A program made the translations under genes and the position numbers. From assembly GCF_003334405.1 (NCBI RefSeq), contig NZ_QOWM01000004.1: DNA of 64,000 nt; one strand, 5' to 3'. This DNA is from Escherichia coli. Its GTDB lineage: Bacteria; Pseudomonadota; Gammaproteobacteria; Enterobacterales; Enterobacteriaceae. Below are positions 32,868 to 55,069 of this stretch, one piece after another; the first letter of the stretch is position 1; each line of letters starts with the position of its first letter. The notes beneath the pieces are model-generated. The model was not told the DNA's origin and did no database searches. It saw only the letters and a program-made list of their open reading frames with translations.

Positions 32868-32910
32868 CTAAGGGGGAGAAAGCGTCTCCCCCTTCATGTT
32901 TAAGTTTTTG
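32868..32910 (+). terminator. Rho-independent terminator after bssR
   Basis: AAGGGGGAGA-AAGCG-TCTCCCCCTT hairpin followed by a T-rich run (CATGTTTAAGTTTTT). Confidence 0.65.
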
Positions 32911-32974: not shown

Positions 32975-34090
32975 ATGCATCGACAATCCTTTTTCCTTGT
33001 GCCCCTTATTTGTCTTTCTTCCGCTCTCTGGGCGGCTCCTGCAACGGTAAATGTCGAAGTACTGCAAGACAAACTCGACCATCCCTGGGCACTGGCCTTT
33101 TTACCCGATAATCACGGTATGTTAATCACTCTGCGCGGCGGCGAGTTGCGTCACTGGCAAGCAGGAAAAGGATTATCTGCGCCGCTTTCCGGAGTTCCGG
33201 ACGTTTGGGCGCACGGGCAGGGCGGCCTGCTGGACGTGGTTTTAGCGCCTGATTTTGCTCAGTCTCGCCGCATCTGGTTAAGTTATTCCGAAGTTGGCGA
33301 TGATGGCAAAGCCGGAACTGCTGTGGGTTATGGCCGCTTAAGTGATGATCTCTCAAAAGTGACCGACTTCCGCACCGTCTTTCGCCAGATGCCAAAACTG
33401 TCTACCGGCAACCATTTTGGCGGGCGGCTGGTATTCGACGGTAAAGGTTATCTTTTTATTGCTCTGGGCGAAAACAATCAGCGCCCGACGGCGCAGGATC
33501 TGGATAAATTACAGGGCAAACTGGTGCGTCTGACCGACCAGGGCGAAATCCCGGATGATAATCCTTTTATAAAGGAATCCGGTGCGCGCGCCGAGATCTG
33601 GTCTTATGGCATTCGTAATCCGCAAGGAATGGCGATGAATCCGTGGAGTAATGCACTGTGGCTGAATGAACATGGCCCGCGCGGTGGTGATGAAATTAAT
33701 ATCCCGCAAAAAGGCAAAAACTACGGCTGGCCGCTGGCAACCTGGGGAATCAACTATTCAGGCTTTAAGATACCGGAAGCGAAAGGGGAGATCGTCGCCG
33801 GGACCGAGCAACCTGTTTTTTACTGGAAAGATTCGCCCGCTGTGAGCGGCATGGCCTTCTATAACAGCGATAAATTCCCCCAGTGGCAGCAAAAATTATT
33901 TATTGGCGCGCTGAAAGATAAAGATGTCATTGTGATGAGCGTCAACGGCGACAAAGTGACAGAAGATGGCCGTATTTTAACGGACAGAGGGCAGCGAATT
34001 CGTGATGTTCGCACTGGACCCGACGGTTATTTATACGTTCTCACCGACGAGTCCAGTGGGGAATTACTTAAAGTTAGCCCACGCAATTAG
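32975..34090 (+). CDS. yliI: Soluble aldose sugar dehydrogenase YliI (PQQ-dependent beta-propeller)
   Basis: ORF track 32975..34090, 371 aa, signal peptide [23 protein letters not shown]. Confidence 0.9.
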
Positions 34091-34713
34091 CTAACGGGAA
34101 TCATCACCACTTTGCGCACTGCGGGGCGTTCAGTGAGTTGCTGATACCAGCGTTGCAGATTTGGACGCGGTGTCCAGGTCAGGCCAACGTTAAACAAATT
34201 GTAGATGAACGGTGCGATAGCGATATCGCCCACACCAAACTCGTCGCCAGAGAACCATTTTACTTTTGCCAGTTCCGCATCGAGCAGGGCAAACAGGGCG
34301 TCGCACTCTTTGCAACTGGCATCAATGGCGGCCTGATCGCGCTCTTCCGGTGGTGTTCTGACTAATCCCATCAGGATCCCGCGATGAGCATTACTGAGCG
34401 TCTGGTTTGCCCAGTCCATCCATTTTTCCGCTTCCGCACGACGTGCCGGTGAGTCGATCCACAGGCGTTTTTGCCCGTACTGTGCCGCCAGATAGCGGAC
34501 AATGGCGTTTGATTCCCAAAGAATGAGATCACTTTCGTCGTCACGCAACAACGGCACCAGCCCGTTAGGGTTCATCGCCAGAAAATCAGCATCGTGATTT
34601 ATCCCAAACTCACGGCCCGCGAGAATTTGCTCATAAGGTAGTTCCAGTTCTTCGAGCGTCAGCAATACTTTTTTTACGTTAGTTGAATTATTCCGACCCC
34701 ACAGCGTAATCAT
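34087..34713 (-). CDS. gstB: Glutathione S-transferase GstB (YliJ)
   Basis: Known N-terminus [12 protein letters not shown] at the ATG at 34711-34713, 208 aa; track ORF 34087..34719; stop overlaps the yliI stop on the opposite strand. Confidence 0.9.
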
Positions 34714-34959
34714 ACTCACCCCTTTTCCGACAGGCAGCCACAGGCTGAACAGGACTCCGATGGTGAAGTAAAGTTAACTTTTAAGCAACAGCTGGCAAAA
34801 AAATGACACCAGAAGCAGCGAAGCGGCAGGATATTGCATAAACTTTAAAAACTTTACCAACTTACGGTTTCTTTAAGTTTGTGTGTGCGTTATTAATCAC
34901 CAAACTTATCATACGGCGATATAACGTATTTTTTTTGAATGGATACTCGGGTGGCATTT

Positions 34960-53927: not shown

Positions 53928-54027
<100 letters not shown>

Positions 54028-54980: not shown

Positions 54981-55069
54981 TGTAGGCCGGATAAGGCGTC
55001 CCCGCCGCATCCGGCACAGGCACCGTGCTGATGTCTGATGCGACGCTGGCGCGTCTTATCAGACCTACA
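54981..55069. repeat. REP/BIME cluster downstream of artM
   Basis: TGTAGGCCGGATAAGGCGTCCCCGCCGCATCCGGCA and GATGCGACGCTGGCGCGTCTTATCAGACCTACA REP units. Confidence 0.8.

Follow-up and report, generated by a model that had tools for sequence, protein, structure and literature searches.

The stop codons of the convergent genes yliI and gstB of Escherichia coli overlap by four nucleotides, and everything observed at this junction is probably explained by an ordinary minimal overlap in which neither gene possesses an intrinsic terminator and the transcription running into the partner gene is ended by Rho. Published data show that transcription of the gstB strand reaches approximately 130-450 nt into yliI, ends near position 33639 in a bicyclomycin-sensitive manner, and pairs with the yliI mRNA, resulting in RNase III products. 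Positions without further specification refer to the window, i.e. the whole analysed stretch of 64,000 nucleotides, in which a coordinate equals the coordinate of MG1655 (NC_000913.3) minus 845767.

An earlier note on this DNA had described the overlap of the two stop codons in CTAA/TTAG. Its coordinates proved to be exact, and the same gene ends are given by the open reading frame list and by RefSeq. The junction comprises the following features:

32975-34090, plus strand: yliI coding sequence (b0837), a PQQ-dependent aldose sugar dehydrogenase of 371 aa with its TAG stop at 34088-34090
34087-34713, minus strand: gstB coding sequence (b0838), a glutathione S-transferase of 208 aa, whose TAA stop is the complement of 34087-34089
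34087-34090, both strands: shared tetramer, TTAG on the plus strand and CTAA on the minus strand, forming the 4-nt overlap of the two coding sequences

The sequence read from 34080 to 34094 is cacgcaattagctaa. While yliI ends with ...CCA CGC AAT TAG, the minus-strand end of gstB is ...CCC GTT AGC TAA, and two nucleotides are common to both stop codons. At its other end, gstB begins in the open reading frame list with a GTG at 34719, the annotated start being the ATG 6 nt further downstream at 34713. The 4-nt overlap was likewise found in the RefSeq annotation of MG1655 (yliI 878742-879857, gstB 879854-880480) and in two other, unrelated strains. The locus was present in 5425 of 5426 complete E. 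coli genomes, and the 62-nt junction showed an identical sequence in 5229 of 5421 E. coli. In the first 50 kb of the window nine single-base differences compared to MG1655 were determined (positions 3188, 4728, 13965, 16290, 18625, 21239, 36083, 44168 and 49782), none of them in yliI or gstB. The window is thus K-12-like DNA of a strain very closely related to MG1655 rather than of MG1655 itself.

Two strains showed individual alterations at the locus. In E. coli RM9088 (L084, NZ_CP042298.1, 952232-952860), the annotation gives gstB as a pseudogene with a frameshift; the stops of gstB and yliI still overlap by 4 nt, and a 2-nt length difference was observed for the 62-nt junction query. A derivative of the K-12 strain W3110 (NZ_CP165600.1, L086 2142-2839) carries a copy of IS1A in the divergent promoter region between gstB and dacC.

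An artefact of annotation can be ruled out, since neither stop codon is ambiguous and the two proteins are full length and have solved structures. For YliI, the structure 2G8S spans residues 21-370 of 371, and 4KH7, which is the structure of a close homologue of GstB, spans residues 1-207. Together with the orthologues in 58 genomes, the structures identify two genuine protein-coding genes on opposite strands with facing 3' ends. The stops of these genes are offset by one base within one of the tetramers TTAA, TTAG, CTAA and CTAG, namely TTAG at 34087-34090.

The length of the overlap follows from the genetic code. An overlap of one, two or three bases between a stop codon (TAA, TAG, TGA) and the complement of one (TTA, CTA, TCA) is impossible. 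By direct logic, convergent genes that overlap must therefore do so by at least 4 nt, and this minimum can be reached only with the four tetramers named above, which were also given by Lillo and Krakauer in 2007 (PMC2174442). The same work counted 58 convergent overlaps in E. coli with a modal length of 4 bp, reported TAG stops in 19% of the genes in convergent overlaps compared to 8% otherwise, and already raised the point that the terminators of such genes must sit within the coding sequence of the partner. In a later study, 75 convergent overlapping pairs were counted in E. coli and neutral movement of stop codons was argued to be their origin (Huvet and Stumpf 2014, PMC4161906). Among the ten convergent pairs in the first 50 kb of the window, yliI and gstB form the only overlapping one, the other gaps amounting to 19-240 nt. 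As a member of a common class, the overlap is not beyond chance.

Compared to the 4-nt tail-to-tail overlaps described in these two studies, yliI-gstB shows the same two real genes on opposite strands, the same offset of the stops by one base and the tetramer TTAG/CTAA. The otherwise rare TAG of yliI matches the tendency of the class, and the pattern fits a drift of the stop codon. Nothing material differs; what yliI-gstB adds is an unusually stable near-zero spacing across the Enterobacteriaceae. Altogether, the junction is an ordinary, already catalogued arrangement, and as such the finding is of little interest.

The earlier note had further concluded that the overlap leaves no intergenic space for a terminator. 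This is correct insofar as there is no intergenic DNA and no hairpin followed by a U tract after either stop codon, but a spacer is not needed for termination, since transcripts of the gstB strand end inside the partner gene in a Rho-dependent manner. A consensus scan for hairpins with a U tract found none after the yliI stop on the plus strand from 34090 to 34992. For the gstB strand it gave only two weak terminator-like sites deep in yliI, at 33742-33725 (-7.7 kcal/mol) and 33494-33481 (-10.5 kcal/mol), and one weak minus-strand site of this kind coincides with an RNase III duplex and not with a 3' end. Our own hairpin-plus-U scan downstream of both stop codons revealed nothing convincing, and the published Term-seq data, comprising three conditions, record no 3' end in yliI or gstB (PMC7815308, Supplementary file 1). 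The features of an intrinsic (Rho-independent) terminator were thus found at neither gene end. An imperfect repeat spanning the junction (34077-34127, 8 bp with a loop of 34 nt) was considered as a terminator and rejected, as it has no U tract.

A comparison with Rfam gave no match in or around the junction. All four RNA family matches in the window lie elsewhere and comprise the RybB sRNA (42209-42287), naRNA4 (54985-55065) and two ES036 elements (53963-54005 and 11870-11912). RybB is itself convergent with rcdA, the gap being 19 nt.

The features connected with termination are the following:

33600-33680, minus strand: approximate zone of Rho-dependent termination, antisense to yliI, around the published peak 879406(-), which corresponds to window position 33639 (PMC7815308, Supplementary file 2)
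33887-34006, minus strand: C-rich, G-poor stretch in the 3' extension of gstB, with a C/G ratio of 1.75-1.79 at +81 to +200 past the gstB stop
34531-34770, plus strand: C-rich, G-poor stretch in the read-through RNA of yliI, with a C/G ratio of 1.5-2.1 at +441 to +680, antisense to the 5' part of gstB
32872-32892, both strands: terminator hairpin of bssR (GGGGGAGAAAGCGTCTCCCCC) with T-rich tails on either side, flagged on both strands by the consensus scan

The Rho peak 879406(-) lies 448 nt beyond the gstB stop and has a Rho score of 3.76 (p = 1.4e-6). Upstream and downstream of it, 86 and 16 reads were counted without bicyclomycin and 190 and 133 reads with it, which corresponds to an increase of the downstream to upstream ratio from 0.19 to 0.70 (PMC7815308). 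Since these values originate from direct RNA sequencing with and without bicyclomycin evaluated in comparison windows of 800 nt, the position of the peak is coarse. The read-through raised by bicyclomycin was found on the minus strand only: for the plus strand no bicyclomycin-sensitive region is listed within gstB, yliI being poorly expressed in that condition (PMC7815308).

Untranslated RNA that is rich in C and poor in G, as is typical of Rho-dependent termination, follows both stop codons. Judged from base composition, the stretch at 33887-34006 is a plausible Rho loading region for the gstB strand, and on the yliI strand the one at 34531-34770 may be considered a candidate Rho site. For minus-strand transcripts crossing all of yliI, the hairpin of bssR would likely be the first backstop resembling an intrinsic terminator; on the plus strand, a Term-seq 3' end of bssR was published at 878664(+), i.e. 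window position 32897 (PMC7815308). A bicyclomycin-sensitive zone in untranslated antisense RNA is shared with the Rho-suppressed antisense read-through at gene ends described by Adams et al. 2021 (PMC7815308). What sets yliI-gstB apart is that it has neither a spacer nor any hairpin before the Rho zone.

A second data set allows the run-in to be quantified. In total RNA-seq of the wild type, yliI showed 33.6 RPM in sense and 32.8 RPM in antisense, while gstB, listed as yliJ, showed 105.9 RPM in sense and 4.1 RPM in antisense (Huang et al., PMC7373196). The strand column of Table S1c in that work is visibly corrupted in the rows b0835-b0843 (yliG, yliJ, dacC, deoR, ybjG, cmr, ybjH), with dacC, for instance, given as '-'. 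Since sense values greatly exceed antisense values for nearly all genes, including the mislabelled ones, the sense and antisense columns were taken as correct. Calculated per kilobase from these values, the antisense density in yliI amounts to 17% of the sense density of gstB, and the antisense density in gstB to 22% of the sense density of yliI.

The same study determined double-stranded RNA captured by p19, and in its six samples yliI showed 37-298 RPM and gstB 8-119 RPM, the stationary samples reaching 190-298 RPM for yliI (PMC7373196). The pairing was located by exact sequence match:

33672-33956, both strands: zone of sense/antisense RNA pairing in yliI with five perfectly paired 21-bp RNase III products (PMC7373196, Table S3)
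33672-33692, 33722-33742, 33843-33863, 33871-33891 and 33936-33956: the five RNase III duplexes

Each of the five is located in the interval from the gstB stop to the Rho peak, at a distance of 131-415 nt from the stop, while no 21-bp duplex is found under gstB/yliJ among the rows listed (PMC7373196). Three independent data sets accordingly agree that transcripts of the gstB strand extend into yliI, form duplexes with the yliI mRNA and end approximately 450 nt into the gene in a Rho-dependent manner. The earlier claim that each transcript must run antisense into the other is therefore borne out for gstB into yliI by the Rho peak, the antisense reads and the duplexes, whereas the run-in of yliI into gstB is weak (4.1 RPM antisense compared to 105.9 RPM sense).

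Whether the overlap as such causes the run-in can be judged from the neighbouring pairs with spacers. The genes dacC and deoR are separated by 46 nt (36163-36208) containing a perfect palindrome of 11 bp (ATAACCGGATG...CATCCGGTTAT) without a U tract. Rho regions were nevertheless published about 400 nt into the partner on both sides, at 881569(-) in dacC for the deoR strand and at 882572(+) in deoR for the dacC strand, and a further minus-strand Rho region lies inside mdfA at 884860(-) (PMC7815308; all MG1655 coordinates). All three of these Rho regions fall within the window. Since pairs with spacers also run in, the run-in is a general feature that the overlap does not cause. What appears to be higher at yliI-gstB is only the relative level: the antisense density at dacC-deoR amounts to 2-4% of the sense density of the upstream gene, compared to 17-22% at yliI-gstB, which in this one data set is approximately 5-8 times the run-in of dacC-deoR.

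The proposed course of events is as follows. The gene pair would have been essentially without a spacer since the early Enterobacteriaceae, and the yliI stop would drift within a variable C-terminal tail, landing in Escherichia on a TAG opposite the ...AGC TAA of gstB. At the stop codon the ribosome would leave while the polymerase continues into the partner gene, and the resulting untranslated RNA would be subject to termination by Rho. Transcripts of yliI would presumably be ended by Rho inside gstB in the same way, and the overlap itself would have no function beyond compactness.

Two other readings of the antisense RNA and of the sequence next to the junction were weighed against this explanation. 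The antisense RNA in yliI could originate from an independent antisense promoter inside yliI instead of read-through from gstB, in which case the overlap would be irrelevant to the double-stranded RNA. Widespread antisense initiation within genes is a familiar phenomenon in E. coli, and none of the data sets used physically links the antisense reads to gstB, both of which count for such a promoter. However, a consensus scan, although crude, found no sigma-70-like site on the minus strand within yliI, and just 131 nt separate the gstB stop from the first duplex. In addition, 86 reads were counted in the 800 nt upstream of 879406(-), a comparison window that spans the gstB stop, and 16 in the downstream one, as would be expected if the transcripts came from gstB. 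An independent promoter is therefore regarded as very unlikely. The other reading concerns a stem-loop in the 3' coding region of yliI:

34012-34058, within yliI: inverted repeat with arms at 34012-34026 and 34044-34058, without a U tract

Following the collision-assisted bidirectional termination proposed by Ju et al. 2019 and Wang et al. 2022, this stem-loop would pause the polymerase and head-on collisions would set the 3' ends. The model itself is described (bioRxiv 10.1101/2022.10.23.513370), the hairpin is strong in the gstB-sense RNA (-25.5 kcal/mol compared to -18.8 kcal/mol in the yliI-sense RNA), it lies 29-75 nt past the gstB stop, and four of its pairs are doubly changed across the family, including ACU/AGU in E. 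coli versus GUC/GAC in Citrobacter. These four are, however, the only double changes among the 15 pairs of the stem. With 77.5% of pairs formed in the 59 sequences compared to 76.1% in column shuffles, and with RNAalifold not recovering the stem, the hairpin was rejected as a family-wide RNA element; its pairing fits a by-product of coding, and it was judged to be that, resulting from the conserved GPDG...TDES(S/D)G (GPDG...TDESSG in E. coli). Moreover, the hairpin is located upstream of the yliI stop and cannot be the terminator of yliI, no Term-seq 3' end is recorded at 34012-34058, and the RNase III duplexes and the Rho zone 60-400 nt beyond it imply that gstB transcripts pass through. The pair yliI-gstB resembles the class of overlapping bidirectional terminators (Ju et al. 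2019, as summarised in bioRxiv 10.1101/2022.10.23.513370) in the convergent pair, the overlapping 3' transcript ends and a stem-loop near the junction. The published class is described there as Rho-independent, whereas the gstB strand is Rho-dependent and sensitive to bicyclomycin, the stem-loop lies within the yliI coding sequence and defined or mapped 3' ends are missing. Termination by collision at this site is accordingly considered highly improbable.

The spacing of the two genes was followed in a scan for GstB with one genome per species, which gave 80 loci, 58 of them with a convergent yliI adjoining gstB. The gaps were distributed as follows:

gap of -4 nt, 6 of 58 genomes: Escherichia species, S. 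enterica arizonae, C. koseri and one MAG, always with CTAA in the gstB sense
gap of 0 nt, 21 of 58 genomes: back-to-back stops, e.g. TGATTA, in Enterobacter, Lelliottia, Trabulsiella and others
gap of 1-5 nt, 21 of 58 genomes: Klebsiella, Leclercia and the C. freundii group
gap of 8-20 nt, 6 of 58 genomes
gap of 65-68 nt, 3 of 58 genomes: Citrobacter
gap of 1277 nt, 1 of 58 genomes: C. amalonaticus ku-bf3

The gap therefore ranges from -4 to +5 nt in 48 of the 58 genomes and amounts to at least 8 nt in the remaining ten. CTAA was seen in all six other genomes with the overlap of 4 nt, and none of the 58 genomes showed a deeper overlap of yliI and gstB. In the same genomes, the gap between dacC and deoR showed a median of 48 nt with a range of -6 to 784 nt. 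The tail of YliI after the conserved KVSP comprises 0 to approximately 9 residues and is also variable in sequence, which fits a stop codon sliding in the little room available. The abutment across the family, never deeper than 4 nt, was computed here and was not found in the literature considered. Compared to the median of 48 nt for dacC-deoR, the long-kept near-zero spacer could point to selection rather than neutrality.

Three Citrobacter genomes (L013, L015 and L022, approximately at 3140-3180) comprise a perfect palindrome of 13-15 bp (CGGGTTAGCCTGTGGCTCACAGACTAACCCG-like) in the spacer of 65-68 nt between gstB and yliI, which looks like a small inserted palindromic element. In C. amalonaticus ku-bf3 (L011 3354-4433), a gene of 359 aa is inserted between gstB and yliI, and it overlaps the convergent yliI (4405-5532, minus strand) by 29 nt, far deeper than elsewhere in the set. 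Genomes without yliI showed a strong hairpin directly after gstB. In Escherichia sp. MOD1-EC7003 (L005 2842-2920), yliI is deleted to approximately 15 nt of its 3' end and gstB now faces the terminator of bssR.

Some loci from outside the family were also obtained in the scan (L061, L065, L069, L071, L073-L075, L077 and L080), which comprise one contig labelled as Chryseobacterium and the Halomonas/Vreelandella group. The contig labelled Chryseobacterium sp. 18061 (L071) carries a gstB-yliI locus of enterobacterial type with 72% and 80% identity, which may result from contamination or mislabelling. The GstB of Halomonas and Vreelandella shares approximately 70% identity with that of E. coli; yliI is absent from the vicinity of its gene, and horizontal transfer may be the origin.

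The third reading takes the narrow spacing and the paired RNA together. Accordingly, yliI-gstB would be a functional convergent excludon, in which selection keeps the layout without a spacer and the transcription of one gene, mainly that of gstB, lowers the expression of the other, either by polymerase collision or because RNase III cuts the 3' regions where they are paired. The pair is indeed among the 165 convergent excludons given by ExcludonFinder, detected in half or more of the 58 RNA-seq samples (PMC12288877), and it is alike to these in the overlapping transcripts of neighbouring genes, which follow from the published data, and in double-stranded RNA cut by RNase III, as seen in the five duplexes in yliI. 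The antisense reads of yliI equal its sense reads, the run-in of 17-22% exceeds the 2-4% of dacC-deoR, and a gap of at most 5 nt is kept in 48 of 58 genomes compared to approximately 48 nt for dacC-deoR. On the other hand, overlapping coding sequences make the excludon call almost automatic once both genes are expressed, Rho confines the antisense RNA to the 3' 40% of yliI, and several lineages have lost yliI or acquired a spacer, an inserted palindrome or a whole gene. A functional link between the periplasmic sugar dehydrogenase and the cytoplasmic glutathione S-transferase is not known either, and an anticorrelation of yliI and gstB was not found in the literature.

The defining outcome of convergent excludons is mutually exclusive expression, and the numbers from the rnc mutants do not suggest it for yliI-gstB. 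The sense RNA of yliI amounted to 33.6 RPM in the wild type, 24.6 RPM in rnc-14 and 17.5 RPM in rnc-38, each determined in a single sample (PMC7373196), i.e. the removal of RNase III does not raise it. The suggestion in the earlier note that the arrangement may cause transcriptional interference thus goes beyond these data, in which yliI sense RNA was no higher in either mutant, and INTERFERENCE is not shown for the yliI-gstB pair. A functional excludon is accordingly considered unlikely. The same applies, to an even greater degree, to the most far-reaching form of this idea, according to which the junction (-4 to +5 nt in 48 of 58 enterobacterial genomes, compared to approximately 48 nt for dacC-deoR) would be held by selection as an asymmetric excludon, and the unterminated gstB antisense RNA, equal to the yliI mRNA in amount, would tune YliI via RNase III or collision, with Rho setting its reach; this appears quite unlikely. 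The minimal overlap with Rho-terminated run-in remains the probable explanation.

A large part of this was already known, since every E. coli record carries the overlap in its annotation and descriptions of the tetramer class date back to 2007 or earlier. The pair had also been published in a list of excludons, and its Rho zone and double-stranded RNA are contained in supplementary tables. Added here are the combination of three independent data sets into one consistent picture and the observation that the abutment extends across the family and never exceeds 4 nt. As a convergent pair without terminator DNA, yliI-gstB could be used as a clean natural system for testing what happens in such an arrangement, for which the Citrobacter genomes with the palindrome and the strains without yliI would provide the controls.
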